NCBI GenBank assembly: GCA_008632985.1
Contig: QPGO01000081.1
Location: 310,001-354,138, forward strand
Reading direction: 5' to 3'
DNA length: 44,138 nt
DNA from: Psammoneis japonica
Lineage: Eukaryota
Within the stretch, counting starts at the first letter, position 1; every line of letters begins with the position of its first letter. The notes below the pieces were generated by a model. The model had not been told where the DNA came from, did no database searches, and worked only from the letters and a program-made list of their open reading frames with translations. Shown in pieces: positions 5,973 through 41,172 of this stretch. The position numbers were made by a program, and so were the translations under genes.

Positions 5973-6313
5973 TGAACCCACATCTCTGGCAATCACATCA
6001 AACAGACATGTTTTTTTTTGGGGGGGGGGGGGGGGTCGAACAAGACACTGGGCTGGGACAAAAGCAACAAACCCAACACTGGTGATGAAAGAAAGTGAGT
6101 GGAGGATCTGGAGAGATCTGATGTTTTTTTGGGGGGGATCAAACAAGACACTGGGCTGGGACAAAAGCAACAAACCCAACACTGGTGATGAAAGAAAGTG
6201 AGTGGAGGATCTGGAGAGATCACATCTGGCCACTGTCTGCTGTCACATTGAGTTTGCGTGTGACTGGTGCAAGACACACCTGACTCTCTGTCGGACAGCT
6301 GTTGCACCTCCCC
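5973..6313 (-). repeat. Probable 3' LTR of the Copia remnant, preceded by a polypurine tract
   Basis: On the minus strand GGGGAGG (6313-6307) is followed by TG at 6306, downstream of the RNase H remnant, and ends in CA near 5973. No partner LTR was found. Confidence 0.45.
6008..6221 (+). repeat. Tandem direct duplication of about 100-110 bp
   Basis: ATG-T(n)-G(n)..AACAAGACACTGGGCTGGGACAAAAGCAACAAACCCAACACTGGTGATGAAAGAAAGTGAGTGGAGGATCTGGAGAGATC occurs twice (6008-6118 and 6121-6221). Confidence 0.95.
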
Positions 6314-8857
6314 ACAAAGAGCAACCCACCAGTTGCCGATCAAAGACAGAGCTCCCAAAAGAGAAAGAAAGTGAGGCAGACAGAACCCGAATGTCTGCAA
6401 AGCTTTCCAACAGCAGGTGCAAAGCTGAAACAGGTGTCAACCAACTGAGTCACAGGCAGGAGTGGCCTCTCGTCAGTCAGCAAGCATGACAAGCAAAGAG
6501 AGCCCAGCCAACAAGAACCTCTTTGTGAGCACATCTGCAGCCCCAGGGTCAATGACTCCAGCATGCCCAGCGACAATGTTCCTTGCCTTCCACCAGCCTT
6601 GGACAGCAAAGTGTTGAATGCCATTGCATGATCATGACTGCTTGGCAGCCACCTGGTGGCCGCTGACCATCTTGACAGTCAACAAGTTGTCAATGCAGAG
6701 AGGAGCACAGGCTCTTCAGCCAGTTGCCGGTGCAGTGCTTGCTTGGCTTGGCTCCCATGACACCAGCGAGGAACTCAGCCTTGGTGGGACTTGTTGCCAT
6801 GGTTGTTTGGGTCATGCAATGATGCACAACAGCAGTGCACCAGTGATGACAACATGTGCATGCTGGCAGTCAAGCAATGACATTGGTGTGAAGTCATTGG
6901 CATGTGCAGCATCATCAAATCCAACAAGTTGAAACAACTCCAAGAAGTGGGAGACAATGACAAACTGGGGTCATCATCAAGCCACTCAAAAAAGGAGTGA
7001 GGCAGCAGGGGTCTTGGATTGTGACAATTTTTTTTCAGGTCAAACCCCAGCTCTTGGCACAACAAAACACTTGGCAAAACATCACTGAGAGTTGCAGCAG
7101 ACATCAGCAGGAGCCTTGAAGAACTTGGAAAGGGCCACAAAATTGGGCGTTCATTGTGAAGATAAAATGGCGGGTGAGGGACAACCTGTGTGTGCTGATG
7201 CTGGTGCTTGTCTGCCATTTCTGCCTCATGTCTGTGTTCAGCAGGATCAAACAACTTTGGAGTGCAGTCAACTGCTGCAGTTGAAACAGCCTTGGAATCC
7301 ACAGTCATTTCCTTCCATGTTGATGCTCCCCTTCACCAGCAAGTTTGCAAGACTGGCTTGAGGATGCAGCTGTGTGTGAGAGTTGATCACAATGGAGTCA
7401 CAGCTCTGAACCACACACTCAAGAGCCATTGAATTCTACACATGGACCAGGATGTGCTTGAAAGGGGTGTTTCCTCATGTGGTGGGTGCCAAGAGATTTT
7501 CCAACAAAAGCCAAAAATCTCAACAGCAACATCCTCAGATGGATTGAGCAAGTGAGAGAAATCATCAACCCCTGCCAAAGCAGGAAAACCTCAGTGCCCT
7601 TGCAGGTGCTGGAACTGGAGCATTTGTCATGAGCAGCATTGCCAAAGAACAGCTTGGCATCAGAGAGCACCAAATTGACAAAATGTGTTTGTCCCACAGA
7701 GGAGCATGCTCACTTGTTCAAGACAGCTTTTTGGAGAGCAAGGAGCACAGCAGGGAGCAGTGCACACATCATCAAAGAAGATCAGTCTCCTTTCTGAGTC
7801 ACACTGTTTGTGCCATTCACAACAAACATGACACAAAGAGATGGGGGTGGAGAATCCAGAAGAACAAGAAGCACAGGCATCTCAAATGTTGCCCACACAC
7901 ATGATGGGCCATTTTGGCACTCAGTGCAAAAAGAACAGTCATTGCATTGGTTGATCCACACAAGATGAGCATGCAGGAGGCACCAATTTGCAGATTTGCC
8001 AGAATGACGGCCTTCTTGGATTCATCACCATGCACTGTCATCTTGACTGGCATTTGCCATTGTTTCCAAAATTGTTCTGCCAATGAGGTTGCATGACATG
8101 AGCACCACACCAGGAGGAGACTGTTTTGTTGAGGTGGCCCACCAACACACCCCACTCATTCCAAGTGCACAAAAATGACCAAGCATGTGTTGCATTCACC
8201 AGCTTCCCACTCAGGCAAAATTGCTGGATTTCACTGTCAAGCCAGACCAAAGCAACAAAAAGCTCCTTCCTTTTTAGACAACAGTGTGGGAGGAGGACAT
8301 TTTGTTAATGTTGCAATGTGCACCACTGATGTCAGCAGGGCCACACAACTGCAGATGTGATCATCGGCAACCAGGTGGTTGGGCCGTGACTGAATGCCAC
8401 ATGACCCATGCACTGAGAGACATGGATCACCAGCACATTCAAGCAAAGACATCAGCAAATGGGGGTCATGCTGCTCTGATGTGACATGCACAACACCCAG
8501 ATTGCAATGGTCCTCTCTGTGTGGTGTGGGTGCCAGGATGATGTCCAAACAGGAGAGTGCAAGTGTGTGGGCAATTGTGCCCATGCTTGCAACACATGAT
8601 TGGAAAATTCAATCAAACTTGAGGGTGTCATGAAGCACCCAAGATGCAAGCAATCAATTGTGATATGATCAAATTGCAGCCAATCAAAAGGCCATGGAAG
8701 CCAAGATTGGTCCACAGCATGTCAACTTGCTTGTGAACAAGAAGCCTGATGCTCAACAGTTGGTCTTGGTTGAGTCACAAACCCACAGCACATTGGGGAG
8801 CAGTCAGTGACAAACAATGCCCTGCTGCTCCTTTATCATTGGATGGGCACTAGAGAG

Positions 8858-9140
8858 AAAAGAAGTCACAGGACAACTCAGGAGCAAAATCTGGCTGCTC
8901 AAAACTGAGATTCGCTGACTGTGAATGGCGTCAAATCATTCTTTGCGCACACAAATCTAACTGATGATAAACTCCCCGCGCGGCGTCACCAGTCGGGCAT
9001 TGTTTTAGAACGTGCTCGACTTTGAGAGGCAATCCATTGCGTCAATTCTCTGGCCACAGAACCATGAGAAATCTCATGAACAAAAAAAATGTGGCTCTCT
9101 AGCTCGTTGCCATGACAACATGGAGTGCCCCTTCCTCCAC
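8858..9140. pseudogene. Degenerate remnant of the 3' end and flank of a leishmanolysin-like gene (paralogous to 21692-21990)
   Basis: Co-linear similarity: CAGGACAAC, CTGACTGTGAATGGCG, GCATTGTTTTAGA, CATGAACAAAAAA, GCCCCTTCCTCCACA. A shorter match to its left part lies at 5907-5976. Confidence 0.75.
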
Positions 9141-9526
9141 AACGTGGCGGTGAGATCACAGGCTCAGCCCATGGTGAGATTGGCGTTGACGCCAACGCTC
9201 CACAGCCAGGACCAGAAGTGAAGTGAATGCACACAATTCTCACAAAAAAGACAATGGAACCACACTGAAAACAATGAACAAACCAGCAAGGAACATTTCC
9301 AGCAGTGGATCGCACTGCATCAAATCAGTTCATCAAGGAGATTCAACATGACAGTTCGATCATGATGATTTGTGACAGTTGTTGTTTCCGCCATAAAGAT
9401 TGAACGCAGCTGAGTCTCAAGGTGCAGTCAATCGGCAGGCAACATCAAATTCACTCCATTTGCAGTGTGACACTCTTGCATGGCATGGGCATGCCCAACA
9501 CTTCGAACTGTGTGAACGCGAGACAA

Positions 9527-10236
9527 TCACCTCATGAGTTCATGATTCGTGGTCCCGATTTTGATTGGGTCTCCTCGATTCAGCGAATTAATGCAGAGCT
9601 CAAAAAGGCACCATGCGCTCTGAAAGTGCCTCTCGTTCGTCAAACAAAGACAAGGAGAGTCCGCATAAAGTGAGTCAACATTCTCCAAAGATTGAGTGGG
9701 CATTGCTTGGTCCAAGCAACGCCAATCATAGAACACGTGGGTGAAATCTGATTCATGCTTCTTGACGCATCGTTGAATGGCCTGAAGCTGAGTCAAATTA
9801 GGGTCCGGATTGTCGACTTCTTCCCATTTATGTGACACCATCAATGCTTTGTTAATGTCAACATCACCTCTTGAAACGCCTGCACTTTCAACCTGATTCC
9901 AAGCATTGACGTTTCTGCCGTTGCTGAGAATGTTGGATGCAGGAATCAACTTGAAGTCACAACTCAATTCGGCCGGTGTGAACTCCATTCGAAGAGATTC
10001 CTGAAGAAGATCAAGATCTTCTTCATGCTCTACTTCCGCTTCTTCTTCAAAAATGAAGCTCCGAGCTTGCTCAAACGAGGCCTCATTGATCCGACTGAAG
10101 CTCGAATTGCCTTGAGCAAATTCTCTGCGTGACCATTCAATGTGAGGCATTCATGGAGCAGGGCACCAACGGCTTCAAACCGGAGCCAGATCCTTCTTTG
10201 CATCATCTCACAGGGTGAAGCCAAGCACACAAAACA
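9527..10236 (-). pseudogene. 3' half of the interrupted HET/TIR-like gene: end of HET-like domain 1 plus complete HET-like domain 2
   Basis: CLASPCEMMQRRIWLRFE, then LMVSHKWEEVDNPDP..QLQAI..VFYDWRCLDQ..SLENVDSLY..FQSAWCLFE, matching the HET pattern SH.W / D..C..Q / WC..E. Frameshift near 10150. Confidence 0.7.
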
Positions 10237-13200
10237 AAACCCAATGTCTGTGTTTTAAGTGCTGCTGCGCTTCCACCCTGCAACTCTGGCAACAAGCTAA
10301 CCCACACTCCCAGTGCACAATGTGCGGCAGGAGTGTGTGACAATTGGCCATCATCGGCATTGCCGAAAGGCGATGCCGACCCGAAGCAGCTGGCAACAGA
10401 GCGCGTGCCTGCACGGCAAGCTGTTTGGCTTCCCGTAGACTAGACTTGAACATGGGCTTTGCCACAGCCAACCAATTTCGCATCCGATGGGCAGAATGGG
10501 TAAAATGCTCTTCAACTGAATCAAGGAGTTGGAGCTTGTCTCTTGCCAAGTGCTCATCCGCCCTGGAACATGTTTCTCAGACTTTGGCCTCCGTGTCACA
10601 GCGTTGAGCAGATCTCTTTGTTTCAGAATCGTGTCCATGCACAGCATCATTGTGCATGTCCCACAATTCCCACCACTGTGACCAGATGCAACTGCCAACA
10701 GTCGCCACCCAATCAAGACGTTTCTCCCTGTCAGACAAAGCATGATGCACACCTGCAGCTAGCAGGTGCGACCGCTGGGCCACATTCCACGAAGTGGAAA
10801 ACCTGCCACTAAAAACATGTCGCCATCCAATCCTTTCTTGGGACCGAAAAAGTTGCATGTGTGCTGCAATGAAAGTCCTCAATGTGTGGCAATTCCTCAC
10901 AAAACCACCCTTCTAGAGAACCCAGGAGCATGTCCCGCAAAGCCGGGGAGGCATTTATGTCATCGCATTTCTTTCGAAGACCTTGAAAAAATTTGCATCT
11001 CCATGCCTCATTGTGAGGGCAACGAAGGATGTGATCGCAGTCCTCCATCGGATGTTGACAATGGATGCAACAGTCGGGACGAGCAGGGTTGTGCCTGTGC
11101 ACAATTTTGTTTGTTGGAAGGAGATCTTGGACCAATTTGACGGTGCTCACCTTGCACCGGATGTTCCTTGACATTGGTTTCGAATGCACTTGCCAATCGA
11201 TCGACTGATGCACAACGTCGGACCACCCATGCTTCTCTTTCATGTGTTGTGTGAGAGCTGGACTGGATGCCTCATGCCGAAGGACAGTCTTGAAGTTTGA
11301 AGTCAAGGCACCCGCTGGAATGTCAAGCAATGCAGAGCAATTGGGCATGCGGGGCACAATGGAAGTGTCACCATCATGCTGGCCTTGGAATCCGGCAGCT
11401 AGCGTGTCTGCTTGAACGTTCAATTTAGCGGGGAGAGACAAGTGTTGATGCGGAATGGTGTCGTCTTGGTGCCCTTTCACCCAGGAAAGCATCACTGGTG
11501 TGCCCTGCATGCCTTCACTCTGTGCACCTTGCAACTGTTGCAAAGAAATAAAAATTTCGTGAATGACACCCCAATCAGGAGCCAGGGCATTGGAAATGTG
11601 GTGCCTCAGGCAAAAGTCCCATTCACGGTGAGTCTCGTCCGCATCGTCGGGGTGTGGGGGCAGTGCCTCGAAGTTCTGAACGTTGCAGACCAAGGAAGAG
11701 TTGTCCAGTGACACTCTGTCCCAAGTGGAAAGGTCCGATTGCAAAATGTCACAACACGAAGAAGGAACCGCACCACTGAAAGGTGGCCATGAGCCTCTGC
11801 ACGACACGGGAAGGACGAAATCCGAAGACTGGGCCTGCACAATCCACCAGAAAAACTCCACCGACAGACAACGTCCAGCCAAAGGTGCCATTGCACTGCA
11901 CCACCGAGCCATCACTGCCGACCATTGCACGAGAGTTGGCCAATGTTTCCGCTGGTTCAAACACTGACACGTGCAGCGTCAAGTCTTGAAACAGGGCCGA
12001 TTCCCATTTGGGTGAAGAACGGACCCAAGCAACAAATTCACCCGGGACAGGGAGACTCGGAGGAATGGACACTTTAGAGAATGATGATTGAAGACGCCAC
12101 TTTCCATCGTCGGTGGTGTCAACCAAAACGGGAGATGCCAAAGGCGACAGGTCCGGAACAGTCTCTGGGTGCCTCAAAGATTCCGCGCATCCATCTCGGA
12201 CGGGGCATGCATTGCATCCGATGTCAGACCGGATGTACAAAAACTGTTCGCTCGGTTCAAAGTGAGCCGGGAATTGCGTGCGCATGTCGGCAGCAGCAAC
12301 AATCCATTGTCCCAATGGATGTTTCAGCGAAGAAGTGTCATCCTTGCAAAACAATGCACATGCTCGACGCCACTGCTTCCAAGCTCTGGGAGACGGAGAT
12401 GGCTGTTCCACTGGGTTGTTCAATGAAAAACTGCTGAGGAGGGAGCGATCACCTGCCAATTTAAATTCATCAATGGATGGACCGTCTGGAAGAGCAATGT
12501 CAGAAACCGTGAGCACGTTGAGATGCAATCGACAGCAATTAATCCAGCGGATCTCTTTGTCGGAGAATTCGCCAGACTCAAGTGCAACATCCATGATGCG
12601 CTGATCGTTGTCCCGCTGAAGGGGCAACACACCCACATCGTCCAAGTCGAGAGAGGCATTAATCCGAACCAGAAAAGATCGCAGAGACATGAACCATTTA
12701 GATTCAGAGTGGGGCAGTTTGGAGTGAACATCCACTAAAAAGCTGATGCCAGTGCCCAATTGAAACTGCACCCAAGCCACCATAACACGTGATAAAACAT
12801 GAGGTTGACCCCCGCCGCACCAGTGCCGAATAAACTGCGTGCATTGGGACATGCCTTGCTCCACATCTAACGACCGGAAACCGCCTCCACCAAGAGCACA
12901 CGGACCAAACAGCACGTCTCGTTTTGTGTTTTGGTTGTGCCCACACTTCGCAAAAATTGTCCGCATCGCTTTCCGCTGAACCTCGAACAACCCTTTGGCA
13001 AGAAGTGAGTGTTCGGGAGATTGTGAGACACAGACGACAAGTGGCAGGCGAAGCAATGCGTCCAAGCTTCATGCCTGTCAAGAGGACACGCTCCAAGGAA
13101 CAAGGCAATGTCATCACTCTTCCTCTTTAACACCAAGTGTTGCGTTTTCTGAGTGCCAGCGGGAGACTTGCAATGCCCTAAGGTCTTGTGAGATGAGCAA

Positions 13201-16200
13201 GCTGAAAGCTGGGTGCTGGACCTCTTGGCAGTGCAGTCGGCGGAGAAAATTTCAATGTCAATTTCATCGTTAAAGGGGTGCAAGCAAGGTTCACCGTCCT
13301 CCGTGAAAATCCATTCGACAGCATGAAATGAGCATTTGGGAAGCTCAAGTTCGTGGCCAGCAGCATTGAGAAGGTCACACCACATTTGGTTGTCTTCCTG
13401 CATTTTTGGAACCAGGTCCATGGCGGACGGCTGAGGGGAGGCACAAAAGTCATTGACTTGCTTCGAGGTGTCATCCACGCATCCTCTGATGAACAGTTTG
13501 AGGGACTGTTGTCGGTTGGGAGATTCGAAACAGGTGCCGTGAGCTTTCTCGTCGAACAGCCAGAACAGACTGTTGCACATTTGATTCCAGTGGAGTGGGG
13601 AATTGCCACTGCCCTGTCCCGTGCCACAGATCAGGAACTCAGAAGAGTGAGAGCATGAGGTCGCAGACAGGCCAAGAACCGTCTTTGGCCAATGCCGGGT
13701 GCCCTCCAAGGCAGCGTTAGCGGACTGTGTGATCTGCTTGGGCATGCCGTCACTTCTGCTCTCCAGTGCCGTTAAAGCAGGGACATTTCTGTCATGACAA
13801 GACGTGCAGTCATCATCACTGTGGATGGCAGTCTTCCTCGACACTCTGCCAATTTCCAGCATTAATTCCTCGAGGTAAACGGGAGTGTTGGCGTTCAAGA
13901 ATGGTCTTGTGCCATAAATGCCTGGATTGCACAAACGCTGATGCTCCATGTTCTGAGCAAGGGACCGCCATTTCACACTGGAAACAAGCTGAAAATCGGC
14001 CTCATGCATGTGGATGACGTGAAGTCGGTGAATTTTGGTGTTGCCAGGTTCCTTGAAGATCATGACGTTAACGATGTCTTTCCAACGATCATGCGAGCAC
14101 CCCCAGCGTAGGGCGTAATTGAGCAAGTTCAAACGGATTTGAATCAAGGTGCGTTGGACTTTGTCCAATGAAGCACATTCTGGAGCAGGTTCACCATCAG
14201 CAGTTTGGGAATGAGAGTGAGCATGGGAAGCATGCATTGCTTTCCAATGACCCAGATGAAGGCCTGAGAAAAGCGATGTCGATGTGGACTCTTTCCACGG
14301 CTCAATCTTGCCTTCCAAATCCTGAGCCGTTAAAACTGTGACACAGACACTGGAGAACGGCGTTGCAAATGAGTGACAAACCGAGACGCAGCTTCATTGA
14401 GCACAGACGTGTCATGCTCTCTGTCCAGAATAAGATCCGCCACAACAGTGTCCCCTGAATGACCAAGTCCACAGACAGAGGGGGAACAGTGGGAGGCGTC
14501 CCATCAGCTTGCCCAAAATGTTTCTGATTCCGTGTGTGCAGTGCCGAAGCTGCTTCATCCGGAGCATCAACAGCAATCCAATCCACACATTCCTTTGGAG
14601 GGATCGCCGGATTCAGCAGAACTTGAACACCATTGATCCCAGTGTCACGTTTAGCTCTCACGACTTGATCTTCCGGAACAGTTTGGTGGTCTCTGCTGCC
14701 TTGCGAAGGTTGCGTAGAACAGCTGCCTTTTTACGAGAAGCTGCAGTGCCCTCCATTTCTGGCCGAGCAATCTTGTTGGCAATTTCATTGTCTCGATGCT
14801 TAACGCTCTCAGCCGCGACCTGTTGACACTCGTTCTGCACTTGTCGTAAAGCTTGTTGGCACTCTTCAATGGCAGATGGGATCACAAATTTGCCACTCAG
14901 GCTGGCGCGGACATTTTGAATCTGAGCCGTGTGATCAATGCGGGCACGCATCACAGACAACACACGAGACAAGAGATGCACTCGACAACGTAAATCCGCC
15001 AACTGAGTCGACCACTCCGGTTCTCGGTGAAGGCGACACTTCTTTGCCACTGCAAGAAAACTGCAACAGATCCCTATCCAGCCTTTCTGCCAATTCATGA
15101 TCAGGAGTGATGGACTCCATGAGTGAAGTGGACCTCTCCAAAACGTTCCGACTCTCTAGCATGGGATCGATGGTTTGTAGGTGGGTGGCAACTTGAGGTT
15201 TCGAAGACGCTTGTAGGTCTGAAAGGCCGCCTTCGGAAGATCAACGGTCGGGTTGCCGAACAAAGTGACAGTGTCAAAGTCCACGAAGCAAGCGCGATGA
15301 TCCGAAGTGATGCGGCATCCAAATGCTTCACAGCCACCAAATCGTGCAGTGGCCAAAGCACCAGGGGTAGCTAAAACGAAATCCAAGCATTTTGACCCCC
15401 TTGTGCAAGCAGAAAATGCCCGTGTCTCCTGTGAGAAGAGAACATCAACATCGGAGAGATTGAACCGTTTGGGGCCAAAGTGGACAGAGAGTCCGGGTGT
15501 CAATGACGAAGTCCCGTGTTAAAGTCCCCCGGAACAAAATTAACCTCACCGGTGATGAAGGGAGTTTGTCACTGTGGAACGGCAAACCAACAAAACTGAA
15601 TGTTGGGCAGTGTCCAAACAAACCTCCGATGCACCCACAATGTCAGCCTGCATCTCGTTTGTGATCTGCCAGTGCGCAGCGAAGTCTCCTCCACGTTTGT
15701 CAAACTTGCTGCCATTTGCATTGAAAGCGTGCAGTCTGATGTGATGTGACAGCTTGGGCCCCACAGAGTCACCAACGGAAACGTTTGTCTTCAGGTGTGA
15801 GAAATCAATGTGTCGTCCGGCAGAGGATTGAAACCACCTGCCATCCAAGAGTGTCTGCCATGTGGAAGACATGTCTGTTGAAATGGCACTGCTCATGGTT
15901 GGGCCACACTCCTCCAAAGAGAAGACTGGGGCTTGCAGCGCTGCCAGCAGGTTGAACCGAAGAATGAGGGCATGGAGAAGATTGGGGCTTGTTGCGATGC
16001 AACGGGTGTGAGGCAGCATGAAAGGAGAACTTGCGACATCGAGATGTGCGTCGAAAAACGTGTGCCAAAGTGTGGGACTCTTGAAGTCGTGAGGCAATGT
16101 CAGGAGGACACCCAATCTTTTGAGGGGGTGGAGGCAGCGAAGTCCAACCCCGCTCTAAAAATCCTTCTCCTTGTCTCGATGGTCGCCAGGCCTGTCTGGT

Positions 16201-17186
16201 GTTTCGTTGTTGTTGGGACGTTTCCGTGCGACGCTCTGTGCAGGTTGGCTTGCCTGCAACAGTTGGACAATCTGATTCATCTGTGACTGCATGCCAGACA
16301 GTTGTTGCGAGTGGCGGTCCTGTGTGGCCATCACATCATTTGTGTGCTGAGTGGTGAAAGCATTGTTCAATGCTTCCATGTCCCAAGAATGTTGTGCACG
16401 TAATTCAGTGAGGGCTTTGTCATGTTTCTCTTGCATTTGGTTCATTGTCTGTTGCACTTCTGCCAACTGTGCTGCAGCAATTGACGAGCCAGCGGTCAAC
16501 TGTGTTGCCTGTGCATGAGAGTGCGGGGAAGACGTTGAGCTTCGATGTCCGGGAATGCCACAGGAAGGTGGGGAGAACTGGGAATGCTGAGTGAAAATGT
16601 GAGGAGGCACCGCCGAGCCTTGAGTTGTCCCTCGTCCAGGGTAACCTCGTCCTTCATGACCACGTCCAGCAAGTGGTTTCAAAGCAGGTTGTGTCGAACC
16701 GGGAGCCTGATTGTCAGTCAGCGGAGAAACGTCCGAAAATGTAAGAAATTTGAGACTGCAAATGCCAGCCGAAATGATGGATTTGCTTGTGTCGGATGAT
16801 TCTTCGAAGACACCTGACACTTGAGGAGGTTCCAAAAATGGGGGAGATGGGTGAGATTCTTTCGAAACAGAAGGGATCAGATTCACAACGCACGTGGAAA
16901 TGGCTGCTCGGATGGTGTCAAAGTTCCAACGGTCCACTAGAATGTTGAATCGTCCATCAACAATCGTTGATTTGAAAATGTCCTTCACTCCAGTCAGCGC
17001 TTTAAGGTGATGTTCAAAATAAAACATCATGTCCGGGGCAGTGTTCAACAGTGGTGCCACAAAGGTGTCTTCATTGTGACGAGCTTGCGTCTTGACGGCG
17101 TTGTAAAATGCAAGAGGGGAGATGTGACGAGTTTTCGCCATCACGACATGAGTTGGGAGTTTGTTCGAAGCACAGAGCAAAGCCTC
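10237..17186 (-). mobile_element. 5'-truncated non-LTR retrotransposon (ORF1 fragment; ORF2 with APE endonuclease, RT, RNase H, zinc finger), degenerate; Ambal-like architecture
   Basis: 17-bp TSD GCCAAGCACACAAAACA at 10220-10236 and 17187-17203. APE motifs FNANG..SEVCLD, PGDFN, LDFVL, SDHRA (~15760-15270). RT motifs KEPGN..HEADF, GTGQGSGNSP, GCVDD (~14300-13150). RNase H motifs SDGSV, WVKGHQD, NVQADTLA (~11930-11380). C..C..EDCDHILRC zinc finger. Confidence 0.92.
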
Positions 17187-18339
17187 GCCAAGCACACAAA
17201 ACAGTTCTTTGCAACAAAACGGAACCATTGAAGAGTGAGATAATCTGGCATGCGCTCATCACCGTAAGGGAGGCAAATCTCCCAAAGAACAAAGCCATCA
17301 AACCTGTCTCTCAAAGGAGCCGACACCTCTCTGAACTCATTGAAAGCATCCTCATTTGTCCCGGGAGTCCAATTGCGATGTGAGACAAGAACGATCCTGC
17401 TCTTGCTCTGAATTTCCTTTAGGAATTGAGGGTGCTCAGCTTCCATCTCGTCTCTTCCCTCAAACTGGAATCCATGAGAGAGAAAATCCCATGAGACAAA
17501 TCTGAAACTGCCGCATTGTCTCTGGCTGACATCAGGTGTCGACAACATGGGACCAAAGATGGAAACAAAGTCTTGGATGTTGCGACACTTTTTGATGCTC
17601 TTGAGCAGTGCATCCTGGTTGTCATTTCCCTCATCAAAGAGTTTGAATGCCGCCATGAGCTGCGTCATGGTTTTTTCCTGCTCACAGACCTTGTCGTCGT
17701 TGCCGTGGCTTGCCTTTGCTCGCAAAGCGTCTGGCTCAGCTTGGGCGCTAGCGAGTGCAGCCTTGACATTCTGGAGGTCATTGACAGCCACCATTTTTGT
17801 CAGTTCTGCCATTTGGAGATCCTTCTCTTTTGCCTTTAGCGCCGGCTTGAGTTTCTTGTGCTTGAGGAGCTCCTCCCTCCGAGCCTCTTTGAGCCGTTCC
17901 TTGTCCTGCTTGCTGTCGTTCAGTTGTTGAATTTCTCGTTGAAGGACCTCATGTTGTTCTTTGGAAAGCTTGCGTTGCCTTCATTCTGTCTGACAATGAT
18001 GGGTTGAGGTTGGACTGAATGCTCGTGATTCTCCTTGATGTTGAATCCCCAATTCCCCCTTGAAAAGGCAAAGAGCACCGTTCATCGAGTTGGCCATTTC
18101 AACCTTGTCTTTGATCTTTTTCAAATCCTTCTCAATGTCTTCAAGGAGAACTTGAATGTGTTCTTGAGAGGCAAAGTCTTCAGGGATTTGGTTCAACACG
18201 TTGCCAATGGACTCAACCTTTGGTCCAAACACTTTGACGGTCTTTTTTGTCTTGCCGCTTCATCGCACATTGTCTTGACTAGCAAAGCCATCTGGATGAG
18301 AGCCTTCATGGCTCCCACAGCTGCCAGTGGTTCAGCCAT
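17187..18339 (-). pseudogene. 5' half of the interrupted gene: helical N-terminal domain, coiled coil, start of HET-like domain 1
   Basis: ATG at 18339 (MAEPLAAVGAMKALIQMALLVKTMCDEA). Frameshift in an A-run near 18245; in-frame TGA at 17981-17983. The frame continues through a coiled coil to IVLVSHRNW..FVLWEICLP..FVAKNCFVCLA and joins in frame across the TSD to SPCEMMQRRIWLRFE. Confidence 0.7.
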
Positions 18340-20049: not shown

Positions 20050-20800
20050 TCTCATGGTTGTCAAAAAGACAAGCTAAAGAAGCTCCCTTCCAAGTGCCAG
20101 CATCCTTCATTTGGAAACTTTGTTTTGCACTTTGCTGGCACACATCACATGCCCTTACAAAGAAATTGTTGTGGACATGCCAGCTCCCTCCACAATGAGT
20201 TGGCGTGGCCCACTCACCAATGCACAGCACAGATGTGACCTTTGTTGTGCCAAGCTGTGGCAACTGCACATTGTTGTGCAGATCAGACATGCAAGCCTTC
20301 TTTCCCTCTGGCAACCCAAGCTGATTTTTTCATCTTTCTGGCAGCATTTTTTTTCAACAGAGCAAGCAGAGGTGGATTTTCTGTTCGAGCTGGGTTCAAA
20401 TGATGTGCACAGAGTGCTTCAGTGCCCCCTCCTCTGCCATGGAGCACTTCAACAAAAGCAACCAGCAATGCCAGCATCACACAAAACTCTGGAGCGGTTG
20501 CTCCAAGAAAAATCTAGTTTGGTGCATGTCACTCCTTTTGGGGCAATTTTTTTCCCAGCTCAGAGTGCTGCATGCTCTCAGAGAAGTTGTTGCCATGGTG
20601 GGCAGCCAGAAAGTTCTCACTCAGGAACTGGGGGTGCAGCTTGCCAAGTCAGTCCATCACATGATGAACTTGGTTCTTGGCATCAAATTGTTGCCAGGAT
20701 CAGGTGCACCAAACACTTCTAGATTCATCCACATTGCTTGACATTGACAGGCACTGATTGAAGAAGTCTCTTGCGGCTGTTGGTGAGTTTTGCCACATTT
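20050..20800 (-). mobile_element. Degenerate tyrosine-recombinase (Crypton-like) remnant
   Basis: Minus-strand fragments KE*HAPN*IFLGATAPEFCVMLAL, GLHV*SAQQCAVATAWHNKG and CVPAKCK resemble the stramenopile Crypton recombinase core. Heavily mutated; limits approximate. Confidence 0.55.
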
Positions 20801-23906: not shown

Positions 23907-24240
23907 GGTGAGTTTGTTTGGGGGGGAACGAAAAAAAATGTGGGAGGTTTCGAATTGACCGTTGTCGTACAGTACGTACAGTTACTGTAGTACGGTACAT
24001 ACTGTACGTTGAACGTTCTTTTCTGATAACTTAATTTGAAATATTAAGTGATTTATATATTCATTAAAAACGTACATAACGTCTCCAAAACAACATTTAA
24101 CGCTCGAAGAAGTCTCAAGGGGCAATAGAAAAAATGAGACAGACTAGCCCTACTTGGAACGAAGTCATCGACCATGTGCATGAACTACTAGAGCGGCAAG
24201 ACGAGTGCTCAGCTAATAGAGAGGAATAAAATAGATCATC

Positions 24241-25030
24241 ATGAAGATTCGACGGCAAAAACGACAGGACAATTGCACCCCATTTCGACTAGCAAAAATA
24301 GCCCTCGTCCTTGTGGTATCACTTTGGATCGTTTTCAAGTTTTTCTTTTCTTGGGGCTCAACAACAACAAACAACAGCGACAGCATCAAAAAGGAAAACA
24401 TTGTCACGATTCATATAGAAGGAGTGGATCAACCCGTTCATTTGGAATTGTACGCCAACCAGACGCCGGCCGCGGCGGAGTATATTCGCAATTGGACGCA
24501 ACAAACTCCACCCCAAAATTGCCCGCAATGCAACACGTTGTACCGCGGAGAACCGGTTCCAGAATTGTGGGGCGATCCCTCTTTGCCAGCTACGTGGGAG
24601 GGTGGGAGATGGGGTGAGTGCGAAAAAACGGTAATAGTCTTGTGTCAAACAAAAAACGAGGAGCGTCGTTGTTTCTCATTTTGCAAGTGTGCATTTCTCA
24701 TCCCCTACATGCACAGGCCCACCGTACGCCTTGATTCAAGGACAATTCGGTTCCAATCAACAGGACCCACCTCCACCCGAAGACCATCGTACCGAAATTC
24801 AACGTGGCATGGTTGCATGGGCGGGTGGAAAGGGTGGTCCACACTTTTTTGTTGCCTTGGCGGATCATCCCGAATGGGGGCACTCACACACAGTGTTTGG
24901 AAGGATTGTTGTTGGTGATTTGCAATTGTTGGAAAATCTCTTGGTGACGCACAACTTGGTCACGACGAGACCGAAACAGCCACCGATTATATCGAATTTT
25001 GAAGAACCAATCCACTTTACATTGGAATAG
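24241..25030 (+). CDS. Membrane-anchored cyclophilin-like (PPIase-fold) protein, copy A; exons 24241-24613 and 24717-25030
   Basis: N-terminal hydrophobic anchor; GT..AG intron 24614-24716 gives RWG-PPYALIQG; RGMVAWAGGKGGPHFFVALADHPEWGHSHTVFGRIV resembles the cyclophilin core. Confidence 0.8.
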
Positions 25031-25515: not shown

Positions 25516-26950
25516 TCAAGGTGGGAGATCAAAGACGTTGACTCCTTCCGGCATATCCAAGCCGGTATTCAGTCGAATCACATCGCTGAATTTCAAATCG
25601 AAAATGTTGATGATATCAAGATATTTCAGCCTCCTGTGAAAACGCTTTCATAGCATTCAAGTAATAAAATAAGCAGTCGCCATCGCGGAGACGGGTAAAC
25701 TGGTCGCGCAGCACTGTGTCCGTCGAAATGGGTTTCAGCCAATCCTCCAACCCAAGCATCAATGTCGTCCACCGAGTTGTACAGTGTGGCTAGCCCCTGC
25801 TGGGCCTCAATCGGATCAGCAACATTGGAGAAATCTGTTGCTCGAGCAAGTCCGTAGGCCTCGCGGATATAGTCACAAGCGGGAAGCCCATGATCGCGAC
25901 CACGCTGAACATTGAGGGAGGCAAGGTCGAGACCACCAGCACCCGGTTGGCAAAAGAGAAAGTTTCGTACATCATCCACAACAAACATGTCAATTTCCTG
26001 CACCACCTGCTGACAGAATCCACCAATCAGATAATCCACATTTTCTGGGTTGTTGGACAAGAAGGTGGCATTGAAAAAGGTGTGTCATAAACCAATCGAC
26101 CCCCTTTGGATTGTCCCATCTGACAGCATCAAGATGGGCATCAGCATGGCGTGGCCCACACAAAATGCTGCCATTTCAAACTCAGCAGCAATGCCAGGGT
26201 CAACACTTCTGTCAAATCATTGGTGGAGAGAGGGTGCCATGGGCTCAAGCAGCTTGGGAAGGAATTTGTTGCACATGATTGCTTGCATCTCTGCACCAAC
26301 AATCTTGCACTCCAATTGGCACACACGGCTGTTGCTTTCTGTTGGATGTAGCTGCACAATGAACAAAGAGAGTTTGAAGAGCAGAAAGACCAACCTGTTC
26401 ATTGGCTCAAATGTCTCCTGCAAGAAAGAAATCTGTGTGGTCACTTCCTCCCTTGTTCTCAAGGCCATCAACATGAAAAGGGAGAAGCTCACACCCATTT
26501 TAATCAGACTTGTCTTGAGTTTGCCACCTTGTTGTGTGTGCAATGCAAGTGCACCAGACTTGTCAGATCTGCAAATGTTGGAATGATCAATGCATGCCAT
26601 GATTTCATTGATGGCAGGGACTCTCTGAACTTTGCCATTGGGCAGGTCAATGTTGTAAAGATGACCTCATGCCTTTTCTTGATGGGCTGAACTAGAGAGC
26701 TTGGAGAGCAGCTTTTGCATTGTCTGGCATGGCTTGCAAAGGAGCCAGAGCTTCCCCCCACTTTTTTCTTGTGGAAAGCATCTCTTCTCCATTCAATTGC
26801 AAGGTTTTGGCTCACTCACCACAAAGAAAGAATCTCGTTATTGCTGTTTTCAAAGATCAATCTTCAAATTGCATCACATGTCAACAAGTCTCCTTGCATG
26901 ACATTGGACAAGTTTTTTTTGCAGCAGCAGTGCAGCTGCTCAAAACAAAC
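25516..26950 (-). pseudogene. Animal-type heme peroxidase pseudogene, copy A; decay increases toward its 5' end
   Basis: DLASLNVQRGRDHGLP and DIDAWVGGLAE; aligns to 41696-43459 with deletions, frameshifts and many TA>CA/TG and CG>TG/CA changes. The 5' limit is approximate. Confidence 0.88.
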
Positions 26951-33390: not shown

Positions 33391-34594
33391 ATGTTTTGTC
33401 ATTGGTCAGTGTGGTGTCATCACTGCATTTTACTTTTGTGAGAGCAGCTGAAGAAGTGGTCCAAGAGGTGTCTCAAGCAGCCCACTCTGATGCAGGTGGT
33501 GAAGCCAACGGTGATGGTGAGGGGAACGACGGTGAAGTTGGACATGCCGCTCCATCTTGTGATTGGCAGCGCTGGATGGTTTGGCAAAAGTGTTCAGTGT
33601 TGTCAAAAATGCTTTGATCGTTCATTCTGTTGTCAATGCGCCTGTCTAACTTGCCAGTTCTGAGAGTGTTTTTTGGACAAAACAGAAATCCACAATTCTC
33701 AACAACACACAACGAGACCAACCCAGTGGGATGCATTGTGCAATTGCTCCCAATGTTGAAAAAACAAGTGGAGAAATTGGTGCAAGCATCATTGAGACAT
33801 CACGTCGTAAAGTGGGACACCGGCGGCACGCATCATTGTGCTGCTGCAGTTTCTTGCGTGTGACTTTGAAACACATGTTCAACGATGCATGTCGGCAATG
33901 CAATGAACTCACTCACTCCATTGTCACAATTTTGGTTTGGACATCTTTAAAAAATGTCCAGCGGTGATTGTAAAAAAATCGCAGTCAACGGAAATTAAAC
34001 ACAACATGGTGCCTTTGCTGCAGGCAAAGGGGGAAATGCCTCTTTGACTTCGAGAAAATTTTCGAAGGACCGCCCACTTCGTGTTGGCTGCAGTCACGTG
34101 AGAGGCTTTGCATTTTACACTCATTGACGAAATTGTGGGTCTTGCAATCGAGTGAATCAATCCCATCAAGGGTGGTCAGTTGCCACTTTTTTTAGCTCGA
34201 ATTCGGCCGAATAGCTCGTGTTTTGCATGATTTTTCCTGGATTTCACCGTGCTTCACCGTGGTGAAAACAACAAGCCATGAGTCTGTGACGGAGGTGGTC
34301 CGTCCCACCAACTCTCATTTGTTTTATGTTTGTCATGCATCAAAGATTGTGTGCACATGAAAAGTTGGTAGACGGCAAACTACGTTTTTGAGAAATGTCG
34401 ATGATTGTCATCATCGTCGTGCTTCGATCGCGGTGCTGATGGTTCTCGTTTTCGTGTGCGATCGGGTGTGACTATGAACAATTCTTGTATTCAAAAATAA
34501 ACACTATAAAAAACCTTATTCAAATGCAACGGTAATTTTAGGATAAACGCGGGGATGACCCCCCTTAAAACAGGTCTGTTTTAAGGTAACGGCA

Positions 34595-37500
34595 CCCTTG
34601 AGTCCAGTCGGGCGGCTGATTGCACGTGCGCGAGCTCCCACACAGGTCAAAATTACAGTAGAAAAGTTTGTGTATTTCTACTTACACATTTCCATGTAAA
34701 TTCGTACCGCAAGTGAATCGTCATCCAGACCCTGTCCACAACACGCCACAAAAAATCCGCCACTTCATTTTTCTTCCAGATTCTCGCCATGACATCCGAT
34801 CGTTTCCGCAGCTTTGTCTGCTACAATTCATCCGACTTTTGTTACCATGTCTCCCTTCTAGCATCCACCAAGACTTTTGGTGCATGTTTTTGTTGTTATT
34901 TCATTGTTTTTGTTGGGATGCTATGAACTTATCGACAAGAGAAAGGGGTTGCGTTGTTGGAATCTGTTTTCCCGTGATTTGGTAGTATGCTTGGAGAAAA
35001 TGTTTTGGCGAATTCCAAATGACAGTTGGAGTGCAATACGGGATCGCGCGATTTTTGAATCCACGCATTTGAATTTCGAGGCATTTATATTCTCGCATTT
35101 GAATTTTGTACTGTGTCATTATCACAAGTGCTAGAGACAATGTCTCGACAACCGCTTGGAAGCTGCAATACAAGGACCGACGGCATTGGGTTTGCGAGTG
35201 TGCCGAATGCCGACCCTAAGAACCGCAACACCAAGGACACTAGTGCTCATGATGACAAAGAAAATGTGACGCCCAGGTCCAGGAAACGTGATAAACCATG
35301 CCCTGATTATGTTGATCCACCTCCGCCGCCATCGCCCCCTCGACCGCCTTCTTTTGTTATCGACTTCGACGATCTGGATTTGCGTCATCCTTTGCTACCA
35401 GGAGATGTGACAAGCCTCAGTTCAGAAAATGATAATGATTGTGACTCACAAGATAGTGATGACAATGAAATGGAGTACGAAGATGGCGACAACTACATTG
35501 GAGTAGCCGAGAACAAAGACACAGGCTACGTTGAGATCATGCGGGCGACGGGATCCAGAAAAAGAACCGACGATTGCCCGGATGAGACTGATGATATTAT
35601 TGACAATGCTTTGTCTCACACGCTGAATTACTTGAATCTCTCGTCTGATAATCCGCAACACAACGGAGACGTGCGTTTTGACTCTTATGATGAATATGAT
35701 CTTGGCTTTGACGCCGACGACGAATCCATTGACCAGAGTGGAAGCAGCAATCGCATTGATGAAGGGCACGGATCTATGAGCACGTCCACCCCTGCGGACA
35801 AGTCTCTCACTGCCTACGGTGGTGCGGAAAATACGGATGATGATGGAGGCGGCAACATGAACAAGAGCGACGCCAAAAAGAAGCAGAAGAAGAAAGCCGA
35901 GCCATGGGTTGAACCGGAGGTTTTGGAAGGTGGCAAGGCTGTATATTTTTCGTATGACATTGAACTCACTGGATCTGTGAGGAATTTTGATCGCATTGTT
36001 GAGATTGGCGCAGTTGCATTTGACGAGTCGGGAAAGATCCTCAGTAAATTCGACGAGCGCGTGAATCCGGAAGGAGTCGGCATCACAGAGAAGGCGTATG
36101 AGGTGCATAAGATATCAAACAAAGATCTCACTCAATGTGACACCTTTGATGTTGTTGGGCGAAGGTATAATCAAACAATGAAATGCAAGCCGATAAAGAG
36201 TGGTGTCAAAGAATTTTTGATTGTTGACGAAACCCATTATACTCATCGATGGTTCACGTTTCTTGGGAAAGACTCGTCCAGAAAGGGCGGCTTTGTTTTT
36301 GAGTTGATACACGACTACTTGGTGCCTACAACCTGGGACAACACAGGAAAGGTAATTTACATGGACAACTACTTCGTAAGCCCTCCTCTCTTTCGAGCCT
36401 TGCGAGAGCGAGGAATATTCTCTGTTGGACCAAGCTCGGCAACACGACCTGAGAAACTTGAAAATTGCACCAGCGACAGCATTCCTTTCCAACAGTACAA
36501 GAAGTCTGATGCTCGGTTGGTTGGTGGAAAAGGATTCATGCGGCACGCGGTACAAAAGCTCAAGACGGGAGTTCTGCACGCTACCACTTGGCTTGACAAC
36601 CGATTCCTTGTGATCTTGTCGACTGTGCACATTGTTGCTACAAAAGCTGAAGACACGGTTCTCAGATGGACAAGTACAGCCCGTGCGCGTCTTCCGATTC
36701 GAGCTCCGATGGCATTAATTCGATACGCAAAGAACATGGGATTTGTCGATAGGGTGGACAAGGCCAATGCGCTGGCAAACATAAGAATTCGTCGCTGCAT
36801 GCGACGCTACCACCGGCAGATTTTCTGGTGGCTTGTTTCCACCGTTGGTTTACTTAACAGCAAGGTTATTTGGGAAAGCTTGCTTGGGGAAGAGACAGTT
36901 GCTGAGCTCAGAAAGAAGAATCAGCGGTTTGGATATTTTCATTGGGTGCAAATATCTCTTGCGCATGGCTTGATCAGAGAAGGACTTCGGGAGGCAAAGG
37001 AGGAGTGCTTGTCAGCAGCTGGTCCAGAGGCACAATCAACTCCGTCACCGCACTTCATGCCAGCTCGTAAGCGGTTGTGTCGTGAAAGCCCGCCGGTCTC
37101 AATGTCGCCTGTGACTCACGTCCTTGTTCCTGTCAAGGACATCAAGCGTCCCGACGAGAAAAATGGCGCACTCCCAAGAAGCTACTGTGTGGTGTGCAGG
37201 GTGCAGGCTGAGCACACAGGAAAAGGACTGTACAAAATGCCCAACGGATCGGCTTGTCCAAAGCCATCTGTCGGGTGCTCCAAGTGCAAAGTTTGCCTCT
37301 GCCACAGCTGCTTTAACGATTATGACCACGAGAACAACCAGGTCAGATCCAAAGCTGTAGTGATCTTCTAACCGTTGTAACATTCTATTTTCGTGAAAAT
37401 GCTGAGTACAGTAGCGCTTTCACCGCCGCAGCACTTGTACTATAGCGCTTCAAGCAGCTCTCTACTCTCTACTCTACAGTAGCTCTCTACTAGCTATTAG

Positions 37501-37878: not shown

Positions 37879-38155
37879 TTGTCTGCACGAACGAACACGC
37901 ACGGTGTTGTCACACCCACGGCACGACAAATCCCTTCTTTTCCGCACACCGTACAGACTAAAACACAGGAAAAGCAACATCCGCAATGCTTTCACAGAGT
38001 GGTCAAACAAGGTTGGTTGTTTTGCTCTGTTGTGTCACACTTTCGACCAAACACTCCAATTGGCAACACTCTGATGATGCAGTCATCAAAAAGTCCTGGG
38101 CACCACTGCACTTCCTTGCGATGGAAATCAGGGCACCAGTGGAATCCTGGCATCT

Positions 38156-38448
38156 GACGCGTTCCAGACGTAGGTGGGAATCCGTGTGACATTGGGCCCG
38201 TAGACTTCTACGTGCGAGCTCCGTAGTAAAATTATACGGTAATTAAAATGTCAATGATCGCCAACAGAAAATGAGGCAATTTTGCGAACGCACAAACTCG
38301 CACATGATTGAAGTACATCATTTTTTACTTAGCCAGTTACATTCTTCAGACATTGAAGAATGTAACTGGCGCATTATTGTTTCTATAAATTTGTTATATA
38401 AAACGTCTGGGGCTTCGCAAAACAGCGAGTCTGGACAATTTTTTTTAA
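38156..38448 (-). mobile_element. Partial MITE copy, inverted relative to 40122-40517, truncated at the N at 38449
   Basis: Near-identical reverse complement of about 40225-40517; starts with GACGCGTTCCAGACGTAGGTGGGA. Confidence 0.88.
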
Positions 38449-39691
38449 NAATCACTGTGCTCCTCCCCACCTCTGCATTGTTTTTTCTGCCATTTGTTTT
38501 GATGCATGCTGGCTCGCTGCCACTTCGCTTTTCTTTTCTGTTGTTTGCTGTGATGTGTGTGTGCTGATGGCATTTCCAAAACATGCCGTTGAGATGGAAC
38601 ATCGTCATTGTTTTTCTTTCACACTGTTGATGAATCACAACAAGAAAGAAAGTGATGCTGGCTTTCACAATTGGCGGCGAGCAGTTCTTCCACACAAATC
38701 GTGGCATGTGCATCTCACAGCCAAGCAAAGAGCAGACAACACACCAGGCCTGCAGCTCATGGGCCCCTCTTTCACACAGTGGGCTGATGGACAGTCCAAA
38801 AAGTGTCCACATGTGGGATCTGGGCAATTTGCTGGCACACCAGAAGAGTCATTGAGAGAAAACCAGGCCTGTGGGGAGCACTGGCCACTTGTCTTTCTGT
38901 GTGGGTGTGTGCCATGCATGCTGCATCACCTGTGCGCAAGTGGGGCCCTGCTGATGGGGCTGGCACTGCAGTGGCAGCACTGGTCATGCAGGTGACCATT
39001 TTGTTTGATGGCTCATGCCATTTTTGGGGCTGTGGCAAGGTGCGCGGACACTCTTTTTCCCCAGTTTGTTGCCAAAACAGTGCATCACACAAACCCACTC
39101 ATTGTTTGACATGTTTTTCCAATGCAACCTTTTTGTGCACAATCCATGACAAATTCTCTTCATGCAAAGCTGAGCACATCATTTGTCAACATGCCACACT
39201 GGCAGTCCTGATTTTGCAGCACTTTCAAACCCTTCTGAAAAACAGCTCCATGCACCCATTGCAGGGAATTCATCAATTTTTTAGATGTCCCCAAGACCAC
39301 CTCCAATGTCCTCAATGATCATTCTCTGAATCCGGGTGATTCATCTGCGCCAAACAACACATGCTGTTCCAAAATCCAAGGGACGCACTCTCAAATTCAG
39401 ACCGACTGCCCGACCCCCTGACCCCCCCAACCAATGGACACAAAAAAGTCTGCAATCACCAACTGTCGGGTGGTCAACAAAAACAAGAGCTCACACAATT
39501 TGGTTTTTTGCTTGTGCAAATCACACAGCAGGGGTGCGCAAAAGGACAAATGCGCGCGAGGCAAAACATGTGACATCAATTGATTTCACAACATCAAAAC
39601 AAAGAATCTGCATGAAAAAGTGCCAAAGAAAGCATTTGGGGAGCTTTTTATGAAAGAAAAAGGGGGGTGAGCTGAGTGCAAGGACATCACA

Positions 39692-39995: not shown

Positions 39996-41172
39996 GTGAA
40001 GATATCATGGCAAAAATGACAGGGCTGGTGCCCCATGTCATGGCAAAAATGGCACTTGTCCTTTCAGCAGCACTTTGTGTCATCTTCAAGTTTCTTTTTT
40101 CTTGGGGCTCAAACAACAGCAGACGCGTTCCAGCCCTAGGTGGGAGCTCGTAGTACTGACGTGTGACAACAATAATTTTTATCATCCGTCGTATGTTTCG
40201 TACGTAGATTTCTACGTGTGATATTTAAAAAAAATTGTCCAGACTCGCTGTTTTGCGAAGCCCCAGACGTTTTATATAACAAATTTATAGAAACAATAAT
40301 GCGCCAGTTACATTCTTCAATGTCTGAAGAATGTAACTGGCTAAGTAAAAAATGATGTACTTCAATCATGTGCGAGTTTGTGCGTTCGCAAAATTGCCTC
40401 ATTTTCTGTTGGCGATCATTGACATTTTAATTACCGCATAATTTTACTACGGAGCTCGCACGTAGAAGTTTACGGGCCCAATGTCACACGGATTCCCACC
40501 TACGTCTGGAACGCGTCAGCAACAGCACACCAAAGAAAACATCATCATGAGTCACATGGAAGGCATTGAGCAATCTGTTTGTTTTGAACTGTGTGCCAAC
40601 CAGGTGCCAGCTGCTGCAGCATGTGCTCACAGTTGGATGCAACAAAGGCCACCCCAAAATTGCCCACATTGCACCATGTTGCATTGTGGAGAACGACTCA
40701 AGAATTGCGGGGCTGCTCCTCTTTGCCAGGTGTGTGGGATGGTGCTGGGAGATGGGGTGAGTGCAAAAATGCAATGGTCTTGTGTGCCACAAGAGACATG
40801 AGGAGCATCATCTTCTCTCATTTTGTAAAATTGAGCAACTCTTTCATCCTGCACAGGACCACTGTGTGCCTTGATTCAAGGACAACTTGGCTCCAAAAAC
40901 AATGACAAAACGTCCACCCGAACAAGACCCTCCCAAAATTCAGCATGGCATGGTTGCATGGGTGGGTGGAAAGGGTGGTCCACATGTTTTTGTTGCCTTG
41001 GTGGATCATCCCGAATGGCACCACTCACATCGGTGTTTGGAAGATTGTTGTCAGTGATTTGCAACCATTGGAAGATCTCTTGGTGACACACGACTTGGTC
41101 ACGATGAGACCGAAACAGCCACAGATTGCATCGAATTTCGAAACACCAATCCACTTTACATTGGAACAGTGA
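39996..41172 (+). pseudogene. Cyclophilin-like pseudogene, copy B; hypermutated and MITE-interrupted
   Basis: Aligns to 24241-25030 with frameshifts, many TA and CG transitions, and stop TAG changed to CAG (41167-41169). Confidence 0.9.
40122..40517 (+). mobile_element. Complete 396-bp MITE with ~24-bp imperfect TIRs, inserted in cyclophilin copy B
   Basis: Ends GACGCGTTCCAGCCCTAGGTGGGA and TCCCACCTACGTCTGGAACGCGTC; flanking AGCA duplication (40118-40121, 40518-40521); absent from paralog A; internal 17-bp-stem palindrome at 40303-40341. Confidence 0.9.

Follow-up and report, generated by a model that had tools for sequence, protein, structure and literature searches.

The LINE and the composition of its surroundings

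The window studied here (G000:C82:310001-354138, 44,138 nucleotides of a 91-Mb eukaryotic assembly, that of Psammoneis japonica) contains a 5′-truncated long interspersed nuclear element (LINE) from which most TA dinucleotides have disappeared. As listed in Table 1, the LINE shares the window with repeat remnants, miniature inverted-repeat transposable elements (MITEs), parts of a host gene duplication, and a transposase gene. The ends of the LINE at 10237 and 17186 are exact, because a 17-bp direct repeat borders both sides. Compared with its sisters, it lacks about 345 bp at 15549. Its reverse transcriptase (RT) motif is GCVDD, while that of the relative L079 is GHVDD and that of an unedited relative, L095, is GYVDD. 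The PF03372 endonuclease domain was detected in another relative, L080 (E=1e-10), and the zf-RVT match of the window LINE itself is weak (E=0.013).

The LINE has 58 TAs versus 410 expected from base composition (rho, the observed dinucleotide count divided by the expected count, is 0.14) and 314 CGs versus 457 expected (rho 0.69). Thus, a preliminary description, made by eye from this sequence, was right that the element retains many CGs but few TAs. In three gene-rich stretches of the window, rho is 0.95-1.04 for CG and 0.52-0.62 for TA. The same description held that a Copia and a Crypton remnant have lost both dinucleotides. The losses are real, with rho CG 0.09 and rho TA 0.03 in the former and 0.09 and 0.08 in the latter, but the labels stand less well: the putative Crypton has no Pfam match at E<=0.5 in six frames, and the Copia label is indirect, since RVT_2 and SH3_retrovirus were matched only by distant relatives. 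The best other matches to the Copia-like remnant are 69-86% identical over at most 235 bp. No close copy was found, so the remnant is probably old. Where TA has been removed in the repeats, TG/CA is enriched (rho 1.5-1.9).

Table 1. Features of the window discussed in the text
Feature	Position	Strand	Basis or remark
LINE, 5′-truncated, TA-edited (endonuclease, RT, RNase H-like, zinc finger)	10237..17186	-	sequence and four sisters, 87-92%
Target-site duplication, left copy, 17 bp	10220..10236	+	direct reading of sequence
Target-site duplication, right copy, 17 bp	17187..17203	+	direct reading of sequence
Copia-like remnant, end state; TA 5 left, CG 15 left	5973..8830	-	composition
End-state stretch, TA 4, CG 4; Crypton label unconfirmed	20050..20800		composition
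MITE of family 1, young and non-coding, early state	34168..34570	+	comparison with family consensus
MITE family 2, unedited copy	40119..40519	+	high-copy family
MITE family 2, second copy, truncated, unedited	38154..38455	-	not a terminal inverted repeat
Haem-peroxidase duplicate, edited part	25990..26608	-	versus intact partner ~42180-42826
Other duplicate, edited part	40517..41170	+	versus intact partner 24375-25000
piggyBac-like transposase frame, intact, single-copy, unedited	35059..37371	+	rho TA 0.45, rho CG 0.94

The TAs that remain in the LINE are far from a random set. Counted on the + strand, 32 are YTAR, 22 RTAR, 3 YTAY, and 1 RTAY (R, purine; Y, pyrimidine), and the YTAR survivors consist of TTAA (14), CTAA (7), CTAG (6), and TTAG (5). 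A purine follows the TA in 54/58 cases. RTAY accounts for 1/58 in the LINE versus 121/422 in the gene regions of the window (Fisher p=5e-7), and YTAR for 32/58 versus 78/422 (p=1e-8). The early impression that the survivors are mostly YTAR or TA plus purine and that RTAY is nearly gone was therefore borne out. Among the survivors, RTAR exceeds its reverse complement YTAY by 22:3 (p=1.6e-4). This skew arose because the ancestor avoided stop codons and carried Tyr codons, and it is not a strand bias; the unedited L095 is already skewed (35 RTAR versus 90 YTAY), and codon position 1 of the LINEs holds about 4 TAR sites versus about 194 TAY sites. The shift in context extends beyond the window. 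A non-random set of 494 one-kb windows from the loci studied was scored for this: of the TAs in normal windows, 29% are RTAY and 16% YTAR, versus 5-7% and 43-57% in depleted windows.

Rates, contexts, and strands of TA loss

The window LINE differs from its four sisters mostly by transitions, often with TG here and CA there. A mixture model of ancestral states was fitted to these five copies. The modelled survival in the window LINE is 4% for RTAY, 21-24% for YTAY, 4-21% for RTAR, and 59% for YTAR, while CG survival is 75-80%, alike in every flank. A uniform TA rate was rejected (likelihood-ratio test [LRT] 188, 7 degrees of freedom [df]), and a uniform CG rate over flanks was not (p=0.18). 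These 4-mer-resolved rates support the proposed context dependence. The set was then extended to 20 copies of four families (20 of 39 fetched loci, the others being without a close sister set). The relative A-to-G rates in xT[A]y are 2.03 for RY, 1.41 for YY, 0.76 for RR, and 0.46 for YR, with a 13-fold spread over 16 contexts, from ATAT (3.08) down to TTAA (0.24). The strand factor is 0.97. Strand-biased editing was considered since the five-copy fit rejected symmetry (p=1.4e-4), but the effect was gone with 20 copies.

L095 and its edited sister L107 (90.5% identity) form a direct before/after pair. Relative to L095, L107 has lost 191/227 TAs (7 otherwise-changed sites were left out), namely 58/59 RTAY, 73/88 YTAY, 29/35 RTAR, and 31/45 YTAR, and 128/349 CGs. 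In the mixed contexts, the A before a pyrimidine was struck 65 times versus 37. ApA changed at 33/1026 sites versus 195/473 for TpA. The changes are neutral with respect to the protein: non-synonymous TA changes were found at 101/253 sites versus synonymous ones at 63/143, and Tyr-codon TAs in the LINE copies are lost as fully as the remaining TAs. Neighbouring TA changes show no strand coordination, either in the LINE families (same strand 0.49-0.52 versus 0.50 expected) or in the pair (52/107). Apart from the direct neighbours, TA loss in the LINE families has no trend by distance to the nearest CpG. As a separate observation, CpG-adjacent TAs in LINE families F1-F4 survive more often (155) than the 4-mer model expects (89), which may be an effect of the +2 base or protection by methylation. 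Co-survival of neighbouring TAs (p<0.005, 26-100 bp) was not used, as it is confounded with copy-level dose.

I used 136 MITE copies in total. From family 1, 36 of 41 aligned copies were kept (5 of a diverged subfamily were dropped); these are top BLAST hits and are biased to unedited copies. The window copy differs from the family consensus by 11 TA changes, 2 CG changes, and 1 other change. In these young copies, the per-base change is 124/1796 (6.9%) at TpA versus 24/1749 (1.4%) at CpG, as expected from the early claim that TpA decays faster. The loss per context is 0.119 for RTAY, 0.065 for YTAY, 0.055 for RTAR, and 0.006 for YTAR. Non-coding MITEs thus share the context order of the LINEs, and together with the Tyr-codon TAs this disposes of codon bias. 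Family 2 is represented in the window by two copies that imitate terminal inverted repeats; treating 38154-40519 as a single element with terminal repeats was wrong. A first look gave 1480 candidates for this family, located mostly in DNA already depleted of TA. A genome search with a 24-mer free of TA and CG gave 257 exact matches, of which the first 100 copies were read; 89 are near full length and 74 belong to young subfamilies. In the edited young MITEs, TpA has changed at 675/1947 bases (34.7%), near saturation, and CpG at 116/1747 (6.6%), versus 27/2365 (1.1%) for ApA, 49/2853 (1.7%) for other A, and 24/3377 for other C.

The state of these MITEs is all-or-none. Out of 28 TAs, 3 or fewer are lost in 33 of the 74 young copies, 4-7 in 6, 8-15 in 2, and at least 16 in 33. 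Smooth exposure models place 18-38% of the copies in the 8-15 class, while 2/74 were observed. Edited and unedited states co-occur within five subfamilies, and the two groups carry similar numbers of private transversions (21 in 35 edited copies, 26 in 39 unedited ones). The CG dose is uniform across edited copies (mean 3.3, variance 2.5) and resembles the dose in two young LINE families (survival 0.89). The edited state is not predicted by the TA content of the flanks (correlation rho 0.16, p=0.14). This distribution fits a switch or episodes, and two transposition waves are also possible.

A log-linear 6-mer model was fitted on the LINEs and tested on MITE sites. The fitted factors are A 1.49 and T 0.61 at position -3; A 1.65 and T 0.66 at -2; T 1.87, C 1.59, G 0.70, and A 0.48 at +1; and A 0.64 at +2. 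This model predicts the loss at MITE sites with rho 0.70 (27 contexts) versus 0.44 for 4-mers, and it predicts which strand was struck with rho 0.78 (25 contexts). Loss is thus governed by whether a pyrimidine lies 3′ of the edited A, together with the bases at -3, -2, and +2. The preference is a single-strand one; the preferred context is (A)(A)T[A]YY, and TTT[A]AA is the worst. The RTAY/YTAR pattern is a projection of the T[A]Y preference and of A/T-tract protection: RTAY is lost first because TAY reads on both strands, and YTAR persists because TAY reads on neither. The rule that RTAY is preferred and YTAR spared, as first worded, holds on average but fails for individual YTAR sites. Among 35 edited MITE copies, CCTAGG was lost in 33/35 and GCTAAG in 34/34, and TTTAAA (0/29) and TTTAAT (1/33) were spared.

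Separability of TA loss and CG loss

The conversion of TA to TG or CA runs about 5-30 times faster than CG loss, takes place after insertion and on both strands, and is irrespective of the codon effect, as the data above support. By copy, the TA:CG rate ratio in the LINE models is 8-32. The data also support that the two losses are separable in both directions. Among the one-kb windows, it is common for TA to be lost and CG retained. The opposite state is that of L095, which relative to L107 has lost 95/316 CGs but 1/37 TAs. Its non-synonymous CG loss (41/336) equals that of its sister L107 (50/364), and it carries in-frame stops; thus, its CG decay is largely post-insertion. L095 belongs to a repeat cluster of about 27 kb on contig C356 whose TA is largely intact. 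This stretch (G000:C356:7500-34900, including L253, L095, and L254) consists of Copia-like and LINE DNA with CG decayed and TA intact, and I call it an off-domain. Compared with eight relatives elsewhere, the C356 cluster has 71 CG losses versus 70, but 3 TA losses versus 146. In one study, a sequencing run (X1) contains 68% of the L095 words and covers the window at full depth with fixed differences, which argues against a contaminant confined to the assembly. It is possible that this TA-intact DNA was introgressed from an unedited lineage. I also found an intermediate domain, G000:C402:1-27200 (L257, L109, and L258), with rho CG 0.3-0.4 and rho TA 0.2-0.35, in which CG is more depleted.

At shared MITE sites, older copies have received 5.5 times (4.25-6.75) the CG dose of younger ones but 2.0 times (1.75-2.75) the TA dose; 9 TA sites and 1 CG site were dropped here as subfamily variants or for lack of data, and subfamily ancestry inflates both doses. 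The preliminary description had inferred separability from the LINE and the Copia-like remnant. That contrast is insufficient for the purpose, being mostly a matter of age and rate, because TA and CG losses are nearly proportional once site-to-site variation is allowed; it is L095 and C356 that carry the claim. The TA process is still running, as TA sites of old repeats still distinguish X1 from the window, although the numbers are small. This comparison used 26 of 617 rows; among the rows listed for 8500-10256, there are 12 differences, with 3 TA-type and 5 CG-type transitions. When rate variation was left out, the TA:CG ratio of young LINE families (12-16) exceeded that of older ones (4-10), which suggested a single burst that then stopped. 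This idea becomes much weaker with gamma variation and is countered by the ongoing TA differences between individuals.

Host DNA beside the repeats is also struck. The edited part of the haem-peroxidase duplicate has lost 31/32 CGs and 13/16 TAs relative to its intact partner, and that of the other duplicate 29/34 CGs and 11/11 TAs. In this duplication (24200-26610 and 39950-42830, a haem peroxidase and its neighbour), opposite ends are edited, with a gradient to a spared middle, where 30/35 CGs and most TAs are kept in both copies. Since the middle is spared, homology alone is no trigger. For a peroxidase of the window, the nearest Atlas cluster consists mainly of Bacillariophyta (score 0.89), a lead only, though one that makes a diatom probable. 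The piggyBac-like gene in the same window carries an exonuclease-like domain; no sister copy of it was found, hence it offers no before/after pair. Its distant relatives L164, L165, and L167 have normal TA and lowered CG (0.55-0.77). A Pro/Thr-rich tandem repeat gene lies on the minus strand at 3060-3760, with a paralogous region at about 22400-23900.

Possible mechanism and relation to known systems

The reading I favour, with a probability of roughly 0.5, is that adenines of chromosomal DNA are deaminated in a targeted way, alongside an independent decay of 5-methylcytosine (5mC). On this view, two processes act on silenced repeat DNA. The slow one is a context-flat C-to-T change at CpG, for which methylated cytosine is the most likely source. 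The fast one is an A:T-to-G:C change confined to TpA on chromosomal DNA after insertion, striking the A of either strand independently, preferring 5′-(A)(A)T[A]YY-3′, avoiding TTT[A]AA and similar A/T tracts, and being switched on by copy or by domain. Most likely, a TadA/ADAT-like enzyme would be recruited to silenced domains and convert A to inosine, which is read as G; a single strike would turn TA into TG or CA and thereby remove the target. The spectrum, the speed, the context code, the symmetry of the strands, the neutrality after insertion, the all-or-none state, and the separability come from the data above; methylation behind the CG loss, adenine instead of thymine as the altered base, the enzyme, and its recruitment are inferred. 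Few reports at most document a natural enzyme acting as an adenine deaminase on chromosomal DNA, and adenine base editors had to be obtained by evolving enzymes. C5-methyltransferase genes are present in the genome. Related C5-DNA methyltransferase frames (L125, L126, L127, and L131, on G000:C301 and C297) lie in TA-depleted, CG-keeping repeats and are possibly carried by mobile elements. The genome also has matches to the deaminase family, which by sequence look like a dCMP deaminase, a TadA-like gene (L113), and an ADAT2-like gene (L116). The dCMP-deaminase-like genes L111 and L112 (G000:C41 and C317) are identical on two contigs, suggesting that the assembly holds some allelic duplicates.

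Several points weigh against this reading. By their sequences, the deaminase-family genes look like ordinary housekeeping genes, so their presence is not diagnostic and proves nothing. Neighbouring strikes are uncoordinated, unlike those of a processive single-strand deaminase. CA and GA are also substrates of TadA editors, while adenines outside TA change 20-30 times more slowly here. The bias extends over 3-4 bases, and DNA shape could explain part of it; enzyme specificity, as proposed at the outset, is still the best reading of the bias, but the enzyme itself is putative. A-to-G and T-to-C chemistry would leave the same trace in the sequence. In most repeats, the TA and CG losses climb together (correlation rho 0.75 in MITEs), and strict proportionality of the two losses with gamma variation (alpha ~0.7), which the preliminary description had named as fatal to its view, is only modestly rejected over 20 LINE copies (LRT 46, df 19, p=5e-4). 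On the whole, the earlier interpretation is partly supported: the feature is real and the motif has been refined.

Other mechanisms may be considered. A writer enzyme might mark TpA in silenced DNA with methylated adenine or oxidised thymine, and the mark would decay or miscode like 5mC, the context bias being the writer's preference or DNA shape. The symmetric dinucleotide, the independent and unclustered strikes on both strands, the on/off state by domain, the co-occurrence with CpG decay, and the slow sites still losing TA between two individuals would suit such a mark. However, 5-30 times the rate of CpG decay is high for spontaneous chemistry, and I regard a base mark as unlikely. MT-A70 and TET/JBP gave no match in the genome, but the controls were equally blank, hence this search is uninformative. 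It is more doubtful still that silencing and age alone set a continuous pair of processes, TA being about 18 times faster with wide site variation, and that the all-or-none MITEs are two transposition waves without a switch. Such a pair explains the LINE and Copia contrast and the TA loss ongoing between individuals, and proportional loss with gamma variation nearly matches free rates in the 20 LINE copies. Yet it cannot produce L095 and C356, where CG is lost and TA kept, nor the unequal CG and TA doses of older MITEs at identical sites, and five MITE subfamilies contain edited as well as unedited copies, with similar numbers of private transversions (21 in 35 edited copies, 26 in 39 unedited ones).

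Error-prone patch repair of the polymerase eta type at T:G mismatches from deaminated 5mC would give A-to-G at TA. The enzyme mutates WA hotspots (W, A or T) in patches near the mismatch, with a TA hotspot on both strands (PMC7884765), and TA loss is found mostly in CG-decaying DNA. But WA covers AA, and in MITEs TpA changes about 30 times faster than ApA, which is similarly disfavoured in the L095-L107 pair; neither a CpG-distance trend beyond direct neighbours nor strand coordination exists, and in C356 CG has decayed while TA has hardly been lost. This route is very improbable. RNA editing, RT error, codon bias, or selection can hardly be responsible at all. The strand asymmetry of the LINE survivors and the nominal result of the five-copy fit are what these causes would produce, but the asymmetry is ancestral and symmetry holds over 20 copies. 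The process also strikes host gene parts and non-coding DNA transposons, and non-synonymous and synonymous changes are similar; the MITE and host-gene data refute such causes.

Beyond P. japonica, I would propose only tentatively that diatoms possess a natural editor of DNA adenine that is recruited through chromatin, follows a TadA-like T[A]Y code, is turned on by element or domain independently of CG methylation decay, and kills transposons by changing Tyr to Cys or His. If so, the RT motif YVDD would become CVDD or HVDD, and C356 would be a natural off-domain revealing the targeting. If the system is also common to Rhizaria, it would be an old genome defence of the SAR group (stramenopiles, alveolates, and Rhizaria), with a direction opposite that of repeat-induced point mutation (RIP). 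RIP of ascomycete fungi makes dinucleotide-specific transitions from CpA to TpA and is triggered by homology along an entire duplicated stretch. The process described here resembles RIP in being dinucleotide-specific hypermutation by transitions, which wrecks repeats and reaches into their flanks. In contrast, RIP creates TpA from CpA, while TpA is destroyed here, leaving TG/CA in excess, and the middle of the host duplication is spared, each copy being struck at one end only. Thus, the process in P. japonica is not RIP.

DNMT5-dependent CG methylation marks diatom transposons (PMC9998398). It would account for the slower, context-flat change of CG to TG/CA but does not act on A:T pairs, and TpA and deamination are not mentioned in the available text of that paper. 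Literature searches, which largely leave subscription journals outside their coverage, yielded no paper about the loss of TpA in diatoms. TadA-derived editors are most active at TAY (PMC10879117, PMC10188366), sharing with the present code the T 5′ and the pyrimidine 3′ of the edited A. This is a functional likeness only; those editors are engineered, guided, work in a single-strand bubble, and edit CA and GA too.

The closest system is that of Bigelowiella natans, in which, according to a preprint, integrated giant-virus and virophage DNA undergoes TpA hypermutation in some lines only, with 231 hypermutations, at a rate measured as about 1000-fold above background per generation, and G:C to A:T changes are nearly absent from the struck regions (Mettrop et al., bioRxiv 10.64898/2026.01.13.699255). 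An adenosine deaminase was proposed there, with an ADAT2-like candidate; the main text of the preprint does not mention diatoms, CpG, context, or flanks. In both cases, the change is from TpA to TpG/CpA only, with A:T to G:C confined to TpA, on both strands of chromosomal DNA, and in foreign or repeated DNA. Here too, repeats are struck (rho TA 0.03-0.14) and genes spared (0.52-0.62), with C356 and the young MITEs as exceptions. The activity in some lines only of B. natans has an analogue here in the all-or-none state across MITE loci and domains, and the rate, measured there, is estimated from copies here. Unlike in B. natans, a separable second process removes CpG alongside (6.6% per base in the edited MITEs), and the process strikes LINEs, MITEs, Copia-like DNA, and host gene parts beside them, near saturation. 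The P. japonica process appears to work like the TpA hypermutation of B. natans and may belong to one system with it. A fast, context-selective TA loss that sets in copy by copy and can be missing where CG decay runs suggests a defence by DNA editing, for which the sole report to date concerns a single unrelated alga. The motif, the young copy series, and the matched off-domain make the Bigelowiella observation testable in a diatom-like alga, and they open the questions of the enzyme, the recruiting mark, and whether the signature is common to both lineages. In such genomes, transposon ages, consensus sequences, and pseudogene calls would be distorted by the TA process.

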